From the NCBI GenBank assembly GCA_000004695.1, contig CM000152.2, forward strand, positions 1,728,001-1,792,000: a stretch of 64,000 bases of DNA. The letters are read 5' to 3'. The notes under the pieces were generated by a model. That model saw only the letters and a program-made list of their open reading frames with translations, was not told the origin of the DNA and made no database searches. The position numbers were made by a program, and so were the translations under genes. The stretch is from Dictyostelium discoideum (taxonomy: Eukaryota). Below, in pieces: positions 10,785 through 45,667 of the stretch (position 1 is the stretch's first letter; every line of letters starts with the position of its first letter).

Positions 10785-11469
10785 TTTTATTTTCCAAATA
10801 CATTGGCCAATTCCAATAATTATTGTTTTTTGTGTGTGATAATCATTGCTGCAAAAATTAAAAAAAAATAAAGATAAAAATAGAAAATTAAAGATAGAAA
10901 AAATAATTATTTAATTTATTTTTATTTTATTTTTTTTTTTTTTTTTTCAAAAAGGTTTTTTTTTAAAGGGGCCAAATTTTTTTTTCACTTTAGTAAAAAA
11001 AAAAAAATTAAAATGGAATTTTATTAATCATATTCTAATTTATTAAAAATAAAACAAAATTTATTTAGATAAATAACACTTTTAAAAAAATTCTGTAGAG
11101 TCAATTAGTCTAAAAATAAAAATTACTTGTTCAATTTAAATAATTAATTGGATTTTGATCTCATTTTAAAAACATTTAAAATTTTATTTTTAAAATGAGA
11201 TCAAAATCGAATTAATTATTTAGACAGAAAGAACAAATTATTTTTATTTCAAAAATTAATGTACTCGATAATAAAAAAAAAAAAACAATAACAAATTTGG
11301 CGCAATTTATGCTCGTAAATCATAACACCATTCTCATTCAAAAAAAGAATGGAAACAAAAATTTTAAAAAAAAACAGTTTTTGAAAAAAAAAAAAATAAA
11401 ATAAAATAAAAAAAATAAAAAAATAAAAAAAATAAAAATCTTTGCAGTTGATTTCGTTTAATCTGAATC

Positions 11470-23732: not shown

Positions 23733-24215
23733 TTATAATAAAAGTTCGTATTTGACTGGTTTGACTTCAACGAATTCAGTGTTTCTTGGGTTGACAAAGA
23801 AACCGTCCTTTGGTGCAGCTGGGTTACGTCTAACATCGACCCATTTACCGGCTTTCTTGGCTTCAACGACAGCTTTTTTGTTTTCTTGGATACGTTTTAA
23901 GTGAGCAGCCATGGAGTTTGATGGTTTGACGTGTTCAGTTCTGACGTGGATTTTCTTGGCAATGATTCTTGGACCAACACGTTTGTTGATGATGACACCA
24001 ACAGCACGTGGAGTAACATTCCAAACACGACCGGTACGACCGTGGTAGAATTTGTGTGGCATACCTTTGTGTACATTACCGGTGGCTTTGATATCAACGT
24101 AATCACCTAAACGGAAAGTTCTTAAGAAGGTGGTGGTTTGTAAGAGACCATGGTTTCTGAAACCACGAGAGAACAAGTATCTGGTACGAGCACGGAGACC
24201 GAATGAGTGAGGCAT
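23733..24215 (-). CDS. rpl21: 60S ribosomal protein L21e, 160 aa, single exon
   Basis: The translation MPHSFGLRARTRYLFSRGFRNHG...GMPHKFYHGRTGRVWNVT...KRIQENKK matches the eL21 family along its whole length. GC-enriched highly-expressed codon usage (cgt, aag, acc). Confidence 0.9.
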   Translation of the reverse strand: MPHSFGLRARTRYLFSRGFRNHGLLQTTTFLRTFRLGDYVDIKATGNVHKGMPHKFYHGRTGRVWNVTPRAVGVIINKRVGPRIIAKKIHVRTEHVKPSNSMAAHLKRIQENKKAVVEAKKAGKWVDVRRNPAAPKDGFFVNPRNTEFVEVKPVKYELLL

Positions 24216-26279: not shown

Positions 26280-26599
26280 ATTATTGATACTGTATAAGTT
26301 GTTAAAAAAAGTGAGTCATCTTTTTTTTCTGAAAAAAAAAAAATTATATAAAAAAAAACAATCAACAAAGACAAAAATATTTTGATTTTTTTGAAAATTC
26401 ATAAAATATTTACATCGTTCCAAGTTGTATATATCAGTGTGGTGTGTTTGAAATAATATTTTTTATTTTTTTTTTTTATTTTTTTTTTTATTTTTTTTAT
26501 TTTTTTTTTTTAATTCTTCCAAATTTCAATAAAGAATAATAAATAAATAAAAAAAAAAAAAAAAAAAATATAAGATTATGACCAAAATGAAACAATTCT

Positions 26600-27388: not shown

Positions 27389-27614
27389 ATTATTGATTAA
27401 TACTTTGTAAGTTGTCAGAAAAAGTGAGTCATCTTTTTTTTTTTTTCTGAAAAAAAAAAAAAAAAAAAAAAAAAAACCATAACAAAGAAAAAACTATTTT
27501 TGATTTTTTTGAAACTACATAATATTTACATCGTTCCAAGTTGCATATATCAGTGTGGTGTGTTTGAAATAATATTTTTTATTTTTTTTTTTTTATTTCT
27601 TTATTTTTTTTTTT

Positions 27615-34683: not shown

Positions 34684-37261
34684 TTATTCTTTATTAGCAT
34701 AAATTTCTCTAAATTGTTTAGCAACTTTAACCATATTAATTAAAGCTAATCTTGTAGTTTCTGGTTCTCTAGTTTTAAGACCACAATCTGGATTAATCCA
34801 TAAGAGATTAGTTGAGAGATATTTAAGCATTTGTTCAACACGATCTTTCATATCTTCAACAGATGGAATTCTTGGAGAGTGAATATCATAGAGACCTGGA
34901 CCAATTTCATTTGTGTAACCATATTTTTCAAAAGCTTTTAAGAGTTTGAGATCAGATTTTGAATTTTCAATAGTTAAAACATCAGTATCCATTCTTTGAA
35001 TTGATTCAAAGATATCATTGAAATCTGAATAACACATATGGGAGTGAATTTGAGTACTATCTTTAACACCAGTGCTTGATAATAAGAAAGAGTCAATTGC
35101 CCATTTAAGATATTGATTCCAATCGGATAAACGCAATGGAAGACCTTCACGAATTGCTGGTTCATCGATTTGAATACAAGCAATACCTTTATTTTCTAAA
35201 TCGGTAACTTCATCACGAATGGCTAAACCAATTTGGAAACAAGTTTCAGAACGTGGTTGGTCATCACGAACAAATGACCATTGAAGGATTGTAACTGGAC
35301 CAGTTAACATACCTTTCATTGGTTTGGTTGTGAGGGTTTGAGCAAATGTGGTATATTCAAGAGTCATTGGAACTGGTCTATTAACATCACCATAGATAAT
35401 TGGTGGTTTAACACAACGACTACCATAACTTTGTACCCAACCATTTTGAGTGAAAACGAAACCAGCTAAATATTCACCAAAATATTCAACCATATCGGTT
35501 CTTTCAAATTCACCATGTACTAAAACATCCAATTCACATTCTTCTTGAACTTTAATACATTTTCTAATTTCATCACGAATGAATTGATCATAAGCTTCTG
35601 GTGTGATTTTCTTTGATTTAAAGTTACTTCTTGCTAAACGGACTTCTTTAGTTTGTGGGAATGAACCAATAGTAGTGGTTGGGAATAATGCTGGAAGAGT
35701 AGTTAATCTTTTTCTTTGGGCTTCACGACGAACTGGGAATGGATTTTCACGTTTTAACATTGATGGAGTAATTTCAGTAACTCTCTTTTTAACGATATCA
35801 TTATGAATTAATTTTGATTCTCTTCTCTTTTGATTTGATTCTTTATTTAATTGATAATATTCTTTAATTTTTGAACAAGTATCTTCTGGGAAAGTAATAG
35901 TATTTTCAGTGGTAAAAGTACATTTATTAAGAGCGTAGGTAAGGAAAGAAATTTCTTTTAATTTCTCTAATGAGAAAGCTAACCAATCTAAGACTTGACT
36001 TTCAACTCTACCAATTTCACGAGTTAATGAATGTGGACAATGTAATAATGAACAAGATGGTGCCAATAAAATTCTATCACTACCAGTTTTGGCGATAATA
36101 TTCTTTAAGGTAACTAATGATTTAGTTAAATCATTCTTCCAAACATTTCTACCATCGATAATACCAATTGAAATTGTCCATGAGGTTGGAATTTTAGTTA
36201 AAACACTTTCAACTTCACTTGATGAACTTCTAATAGTATCAATATGAATACCATTTACTGGTAATGAAGTAATTAAATCAATATTTTCACGAATTTCACC
36301 GAAATAAGTTGCAATTAAAATATTAATATTTGGGGCAGCTTTATGAATTACATTAAAAGCAGTGGTATAAGCATTTTTAATTAATTCAGTTTCAAAGAGA
36401 TCAAAACATAAAACTGGTTCATCGATTTGAACAGATTTAACACCAATCTTTTCAAATTGTTTGAAAAGTTCTTCATAGACACCTAATAAAGCATTGAGGT
36501 GAACTAATGAATCGAATTTACTTGAATATGGTTTTGAACTATCACTTGATTTACCTAATAAAAGGAAAGAGATTGGGCCAAGAACAACTGGACGAGTTTC
36601 AATATCAATTGATTTTGCTTCTAAGAATTCGTGAATTGGTTTTGGTTCACTATAACCACCATAGTTTGTTAATTTGAATTGTTGAGAATCTTCAAATTCT
36701 GGTACAATGTAGTGATAATTTGTATCGAACCATTTCTTCATTTCCATACTACCAACATCGATTGATTTCTCAACTTTTGATGCAAATGCACCTTGAGTAT
36801 TGGTTTCTGAAACTTGGGTGGCTGCTTTTGAAGTTTGATAACCACGACCCATAGCGAAATAAGTACGTAAACCATTTGAACCATCTTCAATTTCAGATTC
36901 AACAACTGGAGTATAACGTTTTGGAATGGCACCAAATAAGTGAATATGATCTAAAACTTGATCATATAATGAAAAATCATTACTTGGAATAATTTCAATA
37001 CCAGCTTCCTTTTGTAATTTCCAATGATTAATTCTAATTTCTTTTAATTCCTTTTGGAATTGGGTTTCTTCAACTTTACCCTATTTTTAAAAAAAAAATT
37101 TTAAAAAATTTTAATTTTAATAAATTTATTTTATATTAAATATTTTATTTTAAAATAAAATTAAATTTTAGAAAACTTACTTGCCAATAGTTTTCAACTA
37201 ATTTCTTTAATTCACGGTTTTCACCCATTCTTGGGAAACCTAAATTTGATGATGAAACCAT
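34684..37261 (-). CDS. metE: Cobalamin-independent methionine synthase (5-methyltetrahydropteroyltriglutamate-homocysteine methyltransferase, MetE), 825 aa; exons (minus) 37261..37181 and 37080..34684
   Basis: Exon 1 encodes MVSSSNLGFPRMGENRELKKLVENYWQ. Phase-0 GTAAGT donor, 100-nt intron. Exon 2 continues GKVEETQFQKELKEIRINHWKLQKEAGIEIIPSNDFSLYDQVLD..., giving the two-barrel MetE architecture with C-terminal zinc-binding and catalytic blocks (HGEFERTDMVEYFGE, CGLKTR). Confidence 0.9.
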
Positions 37262-37409: not shown

Positions 37410-37640
37410 AAAAAAAAAATAATAATTAAATTAAAAATAAATAAAAAAATAATTACGAAATAATATTACCAAACTGGTAGTATCTTATTGACTGTATATT
37501 CAAAAAAAAAAAAAAACAAAACAAAAAAAAAGGAAAATAAATCACCATAATGACTAATGGTATTGGAAATTATAATAATTTAAATTTAATAACCTAATTT
37601 TTTTTTTTTTTTTCCAAGCTTTTACAAAAACTAAACTTAT

Positions 37641-37736
37641 CCCCATTGACGTGTAAATAATACAAAAATGATTTTTCATATTAGAAAAAGTATTTAAGAT
37701 GAAAATCATTTTGTATACACGTCAATGGGTTTTTTT
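37641..37736. promoter_or_regulatory. 96-bp near-perfect palindrome in the metE 5' flank
   Basis: ccccattgacgtgtaaataatacaaaaatgatttttcat ... atgaaaatcattttgtatacacgtcaatggg. The arms are reverse complements apart from a 5-nt insertion, and each arm carries a TGACGTGT / ACACGTCA core. Confidence 0.4.
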
Positions 37737-38421
37737 TTTTTTTTGGTTTAAATTTGCATTTGGTTGGGGAAAAAAAAAAAAAAAAAAAAAAATATCTAAT
37801 GGCACTGAACAAGCACAATTAAATTTCACCCAATCTTATATGTTGTTGACTCAACAACTTCAAGGTTGATATTTGAAAATATTAGAAAATGAAAAAAAAA
37901 AAAAAAAAATAATATTGCAAAAAATTACCTTTACAATTGATTAAAAAAAATTTTTTTTTTTTTTTTTTATTTTATTATTTTTCTTTATTGTTATTACATT
38001 TCCTGAAAATGTAATTTAGAGACAATAATTGATTTTTCTATTAACAATATTTTTAAAATATTTTTATTCTTTTACTATTTTTTTTTTAATTATTATATTT
38101 TTTTTTCTTTATTTTATCATTCTATTATTTCTGTTACTTGAAAAAATAAATTGATATTATTTTTTATTAATTTTTTTTTTTTTTTAATCCAATATATTTA
38201 TTGAGAATGACCAAATTATATTTAAAAGGGAAATTTGAATGGAAAAAAAAAATAATTGAAAAAATTCTTATATTCTTTTAAATTTATTATTACAAAATAA
38301 AATAAAATAAAATAAAAATTATCTCAAATTAAATTTAAACAATATAAAATTTACACTTTAAAGAATGAATGTTTTTTTTTTTTATGAATATAGTTTTTAT
38401 AATTTATGTGTGAACAATTGT

Positions 38422-39386
38422 TTATTTCTTTCCACCAATAACAATACCATCATAAGTGGTTTTGAACCAGTTAACGGCATCTTCTTTACCGATTTTATGT
38501 TGGAAACCAACTTTAGCACCGGCTCTCTTTTTGTGAGCAACACGGAAACCTGGACGTGAAAGTACGACGAAGAAATCCATACCGTAAATACCGATTGATG
38601 GATCGTATTTAATACCTAAATCGATGTGTTCTTGGATACCAAAACCAAATGAACCTTGGGTTGAGAAGTTACGGGCACGGAGTTCGAATTCTCTAACTTT
38701 GAGACCTTTTTCTAAGATTTCAGCAGCTTTTTCACCACGGACAGTGACGTGAGCAGCGATTTGTTCATTACGACGAATGTTGAAAGATCTGACAGTGTAA
38801 CGAGCTATAATTTTTAATATTATGGTTAGTCTATGGTATTATTTTTAGTTATTATTATTTAAATAATTTACCTTTAGAGTAGACTGGGGTTTGACCAGTT
38901 AATTGTTCAAGTACTTTAGCAGCACGAACTAATCTATCACCAGATTCACCAACACAAATGTTGAGAACTAACTTTTCAATTCTGAGACCTCTCATGACAT
39001 TGTCTTTCTTTGATTTTTTGGTTTCAACTGGTGTAGTTGCTTCTGGTGCTTTGACGGCAACCTTAGTAGCGTTTTTGGTGGCAGCTTTGGCAGACTGTCA
39101 TTAAATAAAATGTTAATTTCTTTTTTACTTTCTGTGTAATTGTGAAATATAAGGAGGGTGATAGGTTTTTTTTAATGTTTAAACTTTTTTGACTATCTAT
39201 TTCATATTGTATATCCATTATCGTTATCATACTGTCATTATCAATCCTTGTTAATCTTTAATAATCTTTAATTAATCCACATCAACTATTTAATTTCAAC
39301 CTATAGTCCAAACATTAAACCAAACACCCACCTATATTTTCATACATATAAAATGATATATATAGACATCGCATAATACATACCAT
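38422..39386 (-). CDS. rpl11: 60S ribosomal protein L11 (uL5), about 202 aa; exons (minus) 39386..39384 (ATG only), 39094..38872, 38804..38422
   Basis: Core sequence [41 protein letters not shown] / [24 protein letters not shown]...[38 protein letters not shown] matches uL5. The second junction is a phase-1 GTAAAT donor with a 67-nt intron. Upstream, a 33-codon K/A-rich open extension runs to an AG acceptor at 39095, and the only ATG followed by a GTATGT donor lies at 39384..39386, giving a 289-nt first intron. The first-exon model is less certain than the core. Confidence 0.75.
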
Positions 39387-40230: not shown

Positions 40231-41370
40231 ATGGATGGATTTGAAGATCAAGAATTGGTTTCAATGGAGTTATTACAGATGGTATTATTAAAAAATTTTT
40301 TTTTTTTTATTAAAAAATTAAATAAATAAATAAATAAATAAATAAAACTAACAGTTATTATTATTATTTTATTATCTTTTATTATTATTATTATTATTTA
40401 ATATTAAATAGCAAAATGAATCATATTGGTTAATTCAAAGAGAAGTACCAACAGTTTGTAAAAGGGTTAGAACCATTGTAAATGTGAGTTTATAATTCAT
40501 TCATTCATTCATTCATTCATTCATTCATTGATTCATTCATTCATTCATTCATTCATTCATTCATTCATTGATTCATTCATTCATTCATTCATTCATTCAT
40601 TCATTGATTCATTCATTCATTCATTCATTCATTCATTCATTCATTGATTCATTCATTCATTCATTCATTCATTCATTCATTCATTCATTCATTCATTCAT
40701 TCATTCATTCATTCATTCATTCATTCATTCATTCATTCATTCATTCATTCATTCATTCATTCATTGATTTATTCATTCATTAATTCATTGATTTATTCAT
40801 TCATTAATTAATTTAAATATACTAATGTTTTTATATTTACTATAATTTTTTTTTTATTTTTTTATTTTTTTTTAGAAATGTTTAGAGTTATTACACCCAA
40901 TCGATCGAACTGAAGAAGATAAGGAAAATATAGATGAAGAAGATAAAAGTAAAAATAAAAAGAATGAGAATTTAAATAAAAATCAAGAGCCAGAGGAAGA
41001 GGATAATGAGGTGAATGAATTATTTGATATATTAAAATTTAATGAGGAAGATTCTAAAAAAGTTGGAACTGAGAAATTTGAAACTCTAGAGTATGTATGA
41101 ACTTTAATAATATTGGATTGGATGCAATAATTTTATTTTTTTTTTTAAAAAAAAAAAAAATAATAATATATACAAAATAATAATTTTGATAAATTTATAC
41201 AGAGGAAGTAGAGGTGTTTTAAAGTTAAATGGTTGGTTAGTAAATTCAAATGATCTACATATTAAAACAAAGAGTAAAACAAATAATCCAGTCATGTATA
41301 AAGATACTATTTCAAAATCATCACCTTGGAGATTAAATCAAGTATGTAATTATTTCTTTTTTTTGTAATC

Positions 41371-45593: not shown

Positions 45594-45667
45594 TGTGCCT
45601 GAAGGGTTTCGATCCCATGACCTATTGATTCGAAGTCAATCGCTCTTCCGAACTGAGCTACAAGCAC
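45594..45667 (-). tRNA. tRNA-Arg (anticodon UCG), 74 nt
   Basis: Reverse complement GTGCTTG-TA-GCTC-AGTTCGGAA-GAGC-G-ATTGA-CTTCGAA-TCAAT-AGGTC-ATGGG-ATCGAAA-CCCTT-CAGGCAC-A folds as a cloverleaf. The 7-bp acceptor stem contains one G-U pair. D stem is GCTC/GAGC. The 5-bp anticodon stem is perfect and the anticodon loop has U33 and A37. The T stem has one T-T mismatch and the T loop is ATCGAAA rather than TTCGAAT, so it could be slightly degenerate. Confidence 0.7.

Follow-up and report, generated by a model that had tools for sequence, protein, structure and literature searches.

A conserved palindrome upstream of metE in Dictyostelium discoideum carries paired boxes resembling bZIP sites

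We report that the spacer upstream of metE in Dictyostelium discoideum contains an 88-bp imperfect palindrome that is far beyond chance, lies at the orthologous position in three related genomes, and ends in inverted copies of a 10-13 bp box, TACACGTCAA(T/G)(G/A)G (Table 1). Judged by comparison of metE promoter sequences, the box is the conserved unit and the palindrome is not: the box is kept independently of orientation (inverted copies in the D. discoideum clade, direct ones in D. purpureum) and of spacing (27-70 bp), and it occurs almost exclusively upstream of metE. We consider it probable that the palindrome is part of the metE upstream control region, with the two terminal boxes acting as putative transcription-factor sites.

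The window, i.e., the whole stretch of 64,000 nucleotides that was analysed, belongs to D. discoideum chromosome 3, and the 1.3 kb around the palindrome match GCA_054883475.1 at 99.9% identity, with a single homopolymer indel. To the right of metE follows rpl11 (uL5) as the next gene, which is also on the minus strand and has its stop near 38422. A first-pass annotation, made from the letters alone, had placed the element upstream of minus-strand metE and before the next gene; its position is correct, with rpl11 as the neighbour and the distances to the metE ATG listed in Table 1. The rpl11-metE spacer is 1.16 kb long, has an A+T content of 85% and is without any called gene in all four annotated D. 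discoideum-clade genomes. Elsewhere in the window, a long TTCATTCA-type microsatellite occupies positions 40528-40811 of the window, where the plus-strand open frame reads (IHSF)n. The genome of D. discoideum encodes both MetE and the B12-dependent MetH (PMC2667541). A literature search by gene ID and related names found no paper on Dictyostelium metE regulation.

Alignment of one arm to the other gave 31 matches, no mismatches and seven gap columns, five of which correspond to the AATAA insertion in the proximal arm and two to single-base run-length differences; the outer stems are perfect over 14 nt. The palindrome has the sequence first quoted for it. Its length had been given as 96 bp (37641-37736), limits which add one unpaired C and part of a T-run, and the arms, which do pair as had been described, are interrupted by the two 1-nt run-length differences in addition to the 5-nt bulge. 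Fold prediction, which the first-pass annotation had proposed as a check, gave -25.7 kcal/mol for the palindrome as single-stranded DNA vs -8.5 +/- 2.2 kcal/mol for 200 dinucleotide shuffles (z = -7.8), none of which folded as well. Moreover, exact inverted repeats of at least 14 nt with at least 3 G/C are expected at 0.02 per window, as estimated from block shuffles. The statement that nothing comparable occurs elsewhere in the window was wrong, because a longer and cleaner palindrome is present at 11137-11222. This second palindrome is intergenic and 86 bp long; its arms of 35 nt (AAATAATTAATTgGATTTTGATCTCATTTTAAAAA and its complement) enclose a 14-nt loop, it folds as DNA at -29.3 kcal/mol (z = -10.1), and its sequence is unrelated to that of the metE palindrome.

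Table 1. Features of the metE locus and its upstream region (window positions)
Feature	Position	Strand	Remark
metE (DDB_G0279211), cobalamin-independent methionine synthase MetE	34684-37261	-	gene downstream of the palindrome; ATG at 37261
Third box, decayed; metE-strand reading TACA-GTCAATAAG	37484-37496	-	orthologue (by alignment) of the intact D. firmibasis TACACGTCAATAG at -251
Conserved block CCATTAGTCATTATGG, AP-1/YAP-like TTAGTCA core	37545-37560	-	(nearly) invariant in four species
Whole imperfect palindrome, 88 bp	37642-37729		381-468 bp upstream of the metE ATG
Arm 1, 38 nt, CCCATTGACGTGTA-AATAA-TACAAAAATGATTTTTCAT	37642-37679		plus-strand reading
metE-proximal box, reads TACACGTCAATGGG on the metE strand	37642-37655	-	orientation as in the three D. 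purpureum boxes
Inner proximal arm: 5-nt insertion AATAA (37656-37660), then TACAAAAATGATTTTTCAT	37656-37679		
Spacer of the palindrome, ATTAGAAAAAGTATTTAAG, 19 nt	37680-37698		conserved to arm level in the three closest genomes
Arm 2, 31 nt, ATGAAAATCATTTTGTATACACGTCAATGGG	37699-37729		plus-strand reading
Inner distal arm, ATGAAAATCATTTTGTA, with ATGA-N3-TCAT mini-palindrome	37699-37715		
metE-distal box, inverted copy, reads TACACGTCAATGGG on the plus strand	37716-37729	+	
Perfect 17-bp palindrome GTTGTTGACTCAACAAC, TRE/GCN4-type TGA(C/G)TCA	37842-37858		~590 bp upstream of metE

The metE upstream regions of ten genomes were collected via the MetE homologues, their cluster members and the encoding contigs. 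The group 4 set consisted of D. discoideum, D. cf. discoideum, D. citrinum, D. firmibasis and D. purpureum, and the non-group-4 set of Polysphondylium violaceum, Tieghemostelium lacteum, Heterostelium album, Acytostelium subglobosum and Cavenderia fasciculata. A search of other dictyostelid metE promoters for the same palindrome, also proposed in the first-pass annotation, recovered it at the orthologous position in three relatives, D. cf. discoideum, D. citrinum and D. firmibasis, while D. purpureum has the boxes without the palindrome. In the four-genome alignment, which in spacer DNA of 85% A+T is error-prone, the palindrome is the conservation peak of the rpl11-metE spacer, with 80-85% invariant columns vs 39% overall and 3-30% over most of the distal 500 bp. 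Within the spacer no invariant run is longer than CATTGACGTGTATACAAAATGA, which spans the inner distal arm and the adjoining box.

Conservation is unevenly distributed between the two arms. The distal arm shows zero to one change among the four D. discoideum-clade genomes, while the proximal arm gathers substitutions and indels; the AATAA insertion is missing in D. firmibasis and replaced by another sequence in D. citrinum. The arms of D. firmibasis differ from each other by two substitutions over 32 nt, and the palindrome spacer varies between 19 and 22 nt in the clade. Among the three closest species, the inner arms, which hold ATGA-N3/4-TCAT mini-palindromes, and the spacer are conserved to the same degree as the boxes. 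A pure two-box model leaves this unexplained; it may reflect further sites, or merely low divergence.

Low divergence is also the core of the reading that we are dealing with a neutral inverted duplication without function, the conservation of which reflects how little the four D. discoideum-clade genomes have diverged. Good conservation indeed extends to other parts of the proximal 600 bp, and the proximal arm is visibly decaying. However, in the same genomes the distal two thirds of the spacer align poorly, with the low values given above, while the palindrome does not, and D. purpureum, in which the remaining spacer is unalignable, has the box three times. We therefore regard neutrality as an unlikely explanation.

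The metE promoter of D. purpureum carries three direct copies of the box (TTTACACGTCAATGAG, ATTACACGTCAAGGAG and TTTACACGTCAAGGTG at -265, -201 and -174 upstream of metE), with no palindrome and no hairpin potential (fold z = +1.4). D. firmibasis has, in addition to the two boxes of the palindrome, a third intact ACACGTCAA at -251, which has decayed to the sequence listed in Table 1 in D. discoideum and D. citrinum. Taken over the five group-4 genomes, TACACGTCAA followed by (T/G)(G/A) is found in all 12 box copies upstream of metE. ACGT cores lie 70, 69 and 68 bp apart in the three species with a palindrome, and in D. purpureum the distances are 64 and 27 bp; this drift fits independent sites, and across species (27-70 bp) there is no fixed helical phasing. 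D. purpureum box 1 and the metE-proximal arm of D. discoideum have 17 nt in common (TTATTTACACGTCAATG), which suggests that the proximal arm is ancestral and that the distal arm is its inverted duplicate. The long palindrome would then have been born when approximately 35 bp carrying one box were duplicated in inverted orientation in the ancestor shared by D. discoideum, D. citrinum and D. firmibasis, and palindromy would be a by-product rather than the mechanism.

Box occurrence outside metE promoters is rare. The octamer TGACGTGT is present in three copies in the window vs 0.37 expected, the third of which (23927-23934) is located inside the rpl21 coding sequence. Likewise, the 22.7-kb D. 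purpureum locus has four copies of ACACGTCAA vs 0.10 expected (a count reached in 0 of 100 shuffles), three in the metE promoter and one in the rpl21 coding sequence. No box was found outside metE promoters and the rpl21 coding sequence in the ~270 kb of dictyostelid DNA examined. The rpl21 copies of ACACGTCAA/TGACGTGT (window 23927-23934; L004 19970; L005 17051) are conserved as codons in three species. In the non-group-4 metE promoters we detected no ACGTCAA, GACGTGT, TGACGT or CACGTG within 1 kb.

Three other readings of these sequences were considered and discarded. The first was a match of ACCCATTGA to DUSE, the promoter element of Dictyostelium ncRNA genes with the consensus [AT]CCCA[CT]AA; the match has two mismatches and its CCC is not conserved in D. 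purpureum. A WRKY W-box (TTGACY) would account for a part of the box, the invariant positions of which run on through ACGTGTA, and a bHLH E-box would need CANNTG where the hexamer is CACGTC.

The number of copies also bears on the possibility that a mobile-element relic (a MITE, a foldback or a pair of terminal inverted repeats) lies in the metE spacer, either neutral or co-opted later. A compact foldback of 88 bp has the typical shape of a MITE, the unrelated 86-bp palindrome in the same 64-kb window implies that such structures arise repeatedly in this genome, and small repetitive elements of D. discoideum, thug-S, overlap multicopy miRNA loci (PMC6161686). Yet the metE palindrome is present in one copy in the window and in none in the other ~200 kb of dictyostelid DNA examined, and its flanks (...CTTATC / TTTTTT...) reveal no target-site duplication. 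The orthologous site is occupied in four of the four clade genomes, where the palindrome is the most conserved block and is not decaying, and the terminal box is already present as direct repeats in the metE promoter of D. purpureum. A transposon terminal inverted repeat present in many copies, named in the first-pass annotation as the finding that would speak against its reading, thus has no support in the ~270 kb examined, and a mobile origin appears improbable to us. A metagenome scan for pairs of boxes yielded three contigs with an unrelated satellite of 20-22 bp and 40% G+C; the box pair in this satellite was judged to be due to chance, because one 12-mer coincidence in repeat-rich DNA automatically yields an inverted pair. 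In these contigs (Ga0335398_10196336, Ga0209390_10221485 and Ga0209491_10215071) the 14-mer CCCATTGACGTGTA appears in both direct and inverted orientation in one variant of the satellite unit, AAGTGACCTACACGTCAATGGGATGAGAC.

The first-pass annotation had suggested that the whole element could extrude as a cruciform. If so, the inverted repeat would extrude under negative supercoiling, and the structure, not the linear sequence, would regulate metE or mark the spacer. Strong hairpin potential is predicted for each of the four genomes of the D. discoideum clade (-22 to -29 kcal/mol, z = -6 to -9), the arrangement as a palindrome has been kept since the D. firmibasis split, the arms are long and near-perfect, and the A/T-rich flanks favour melting. 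However, long spacers and imperfections strongly disfavour cruciform extrusion on kinetic grounds, and the spacer here is never shorter than 19 nt, with one 5-nt and two 1-nt bulges in D. discoideum. With respect to pairing, 28 of the 31 stem pairs never vary, the remaining three (the outer CCC/GGG) vary by single uncompensated changes in three different genomes, and no pair has changed on both sides (0/31), although four sequences give low power. The uncompensated changes, the asymmetry between a fixed distal and a drifting proximal arm, and the 19-22-nt spacer therefore provide no support for selection on pairing, within that low power; the lack of covariation speaks, if anything, mildly against a structure. 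Moreover, the D. purpureum boxes are direct repeats without any predicted fold. We consider it very unlikely that the element matters through extrusion, and the suggestion was not borne out.

Hairpins in intergenic DNA may also be transcribed, and the spacer might harbour a hairpin RNA gene, i.e., a microRNA precursor or another small non-coding RNA. As RNA, the 88-nt hairpin folds with -35.8 and -34.1 kcal/mol on the two strands (z ~ -7 to -8 on either strand), an Rfam search of the spacer (E <= 10) returned sub-threshold matches to generic miRNA hairpins, the best being mir-137 with 22 bits vs a gathering score of 56.7, and both strands have poly-T tracts upstream, as is the case at D. discoideum pri-miRNA starts (PMC6161686). 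Against this, either strand of a DNA palindrome folds equally well, and poly-T tracts are found everywhere in this DNA. No Rfam match on the palindrome reached the gathering score when the whole window was searched, and the arm and inner-arm sequences are not in the supplementary miRNA hairpin lists of two sRNA-seq surveys covering D. discoideum and D. firmibasis (PMC11014262, PMC6161686). In addition, the four-genome alignment has no covariation and the loop is conserved as much as the stem. The palindrome resembles Dictyostelium miRNA precursors such as mir-1177 in being an intergenic hairpin of similar length and stability that is conserved within group 4, but it is outside the published catalogues, lacks compensatory changes and lies at another locus than mir-1177. 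Taken together, we regard an RNA gene as highly improbable. The sole Rfam match at gathering score in the 64-kb window is a tRNA gene on the minus strand (45594-45667).

Our preferred reading, a cluster of putative transcription-factor sites in the promoter, also draws on the DNA around the palindrome. The perfect palindrome GTTGTTGACTCAACAAC sits 115 bp further upstream than the 88-bp palindrome, and sites of its type, TGA(C/G)TCA, also precede metE in D. purpureum, P. violaceum, H. album, A. subglobosum and C. fasciculata. A k-mer comparison of 1-kb metE promoters identified TGACTCA as the only 7-mer containing G/C that is present in five of six species. In D. discoideum, D. purpureum (-437) and P. 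violaceum (-440), the metE promoter contains GTTGAGTCAA, and P. violaceum has three TGAGTCA within 130 bp; TGA(C/G)TCACC is common to H. album, A. subglobosum and P. violaceum, and C. fasciculata has ATGAGTCAT at -389. A half-site, GTCAA(T/G)(G) or CCATTGA, is common to the hybrid box, the TRE-like sites and the CCATTAGTCATTATGG block. These promoters suggest that a TRE-type input to metE is pan-dictyostelid and that group 4 may have added the hybrid ACGT box to it. Elsewhere in the window, a near-identical pair of AAAAAGTGAGTCATCTTTTTT (AP-1/YAP-like TGAGTCA) is present at 26312-26318 and 27425-27431, approximately 1.1 kb apart and adjoining tandem thioredoxin genes.

In mechanistic terms, we propose that a sequence-specific transcription factor, most probably a bZIP dimer, would recognise the terminal boxes, TACACGTCAA(T/G)(G/A)G, in double-stranded DNA. 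The class is suggested by the ACGT core of the box, its TGAC(G) and GTGT half-sites, and the recurring GTCAA(T/G)G that it shares with the neighbouring TGAGTCAA-type sites. Both boxes, the downstream third box and the TRE-like sites (GTTGAGTCAAC and TTAGTCAT) would then form a cluster setting metE transcription. The signal might be methionine or homocysteine status, B12 or amino-acid starvation; a link to methionine is plausible from the position of the element, which points to methionine or homocysteine status.

At both palindrome ends the ACGT core is flanked as CACGTC/TGACGT, which is the sequence pattern of bZIP ACGT-core sites. In plant nomenclature, CACGTC is a G-box/C-box hybrid ACGT element, and CCACGTCA is an XBP1/CREB3/ATF6-type core. 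ACGTGT occurs in the yeast Hac1 UPRE-2, and the metE box may bear a likeness to XBP1/Hac1-type UPREs. The terminal TGACGTGT/ACACGTCA had been singled out as bZIP-like half-sites in the first-pass annotation, and our data agree in that they look like the functional part: TACACGTCAA is invariant in every copy upstream of metE, and the octamer is identical to a natural CREB/ATF bZIP site in the 21-bp repeats of HTLV-1 (PMC509288). The metE box is thus like other ACGT-core bZIP elements in combining this core with one TGAC half-site and in being present in multiple copies before a metabolic gene, but it differs in its flanks, TA-CACGTCA-A(T/G)G and not CC-CACGTCA-TC. Full-text searches were useful for TGACGTGT/ACACGTCA with respect to the HTLV-1 CRE alone, and returned only unrelated primers for the arm sequences.

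D. discoideum encodes 19 bZIP factors, to which a review assigns no target sites and which it treats as largely uncharacterised (PMC6025073). Literature searches found no bZIP site matching the box. One of the factors, BzpR, is under GCN4-like translational control, and a search of its report gave no binding site for it (PMC3293825). DimB is an unlike case, in that the sites it binds are CCCCAC-like and have no match to the ACGT-core metE box.

The TRE-like sites invite comparison with the GCN4/AP-1 sites that fungi have in the promoters of amino-acid biosynthetic genes; yeast MET6 is a Gcn4 target. The likeness consists of a perfect palindromic TRE close to the element and of the recurrence of TGA(C/G)TCA in the metE promoters of six dictyostelid lineages, whereas the flanks of the metE site, TTGA..TCAA, differ from ATGA..TCAT. 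To our knowledge, Dictyostelium has no demonstrated regulator of biosynthetic genes of the GCN4 type. The arrangement as a whole is similar to homotypic clusters of transcription-factor sites, having two to three copies per promoter, an orientation and spacing that vary between D. discoideum, D. firmibasis and D. purpureum, and an invariant 10-nt core; unlike in such clusters, two of the metE boxes are embedded in a 31/38-nt inverted duplication, the non-box parts of which are also conserved in the closest species.

From what can be read in the sequence, the element looks like an ordinary kind, a conserved cluster of transcription-factor sites in a promoter, of which this instance is previously undescribed, and no new kind of mechanism is indicated. 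We know of few Dictyostelium promoter elements that have been defined outside developmental genes. An invariant and almost promoter-specific box with a clear comparative footprint is a ready probe for its factor (pattern TACACGTCAAKRG; 25-mer TATTATTTACACGTCAATGGGGATA) and gives a testable handle on methionine regeneration in a bacterivorous amoeba with both MetE and MetH. On a small scale, the metE boxes also illustrate how sites turn over between D. purpureum, D. firmibasis and D. discoideum.

In algae the METE promoters are repressed by vitamin B12, and where both MetE and MetH are present metE is usually switched off by B12, which D. discoideum obtains from the bacteria eaten. The analogy is physiological, with no sequence relation between the promoters: D. 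discoideum resembles the algae in having both enzymes, and its possession of MetH makes B12-dependent switching of metE an attractive possibility. In its most specific form, the box would be a group-4-specific and largely metE-dedicated response element, with a bZIP heterodimer switching metE by the supply of B12, homocysteine or methionine and with the inverted duplication as a cooperative two-dimer site; we consider this form speculative and rather doubtful. If true, no nutrient-responsive cis-element of one-carbon metabolism would have been defined earlier in Amoebozoa, and the box would represent a traceable rewiring of a promoter from TRE sites to hybrid ACGT boxes.

Among the other methyl-cycle genes, sahA was inspected: the 4 kb upstream of it in D. 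discoideum and D. purpureum have no ACACGTCAA, ACGTCAA or GACGTGT, and this one gene in two species therefore gives no evidence for a shared methyl-cycle regulon. Finally, Tieghemostelium lacteum (L007 11114-13807) has an uninterrupted ORF of 897 codons in which the C-terminal half of MetE is fused to a complete S-adenosylhomocysteine hydrolase, such that consecutive enzymes of the methyl cycle are joined; this species also has a separate SahA (P0130), which is 86% identical to the fused copy.
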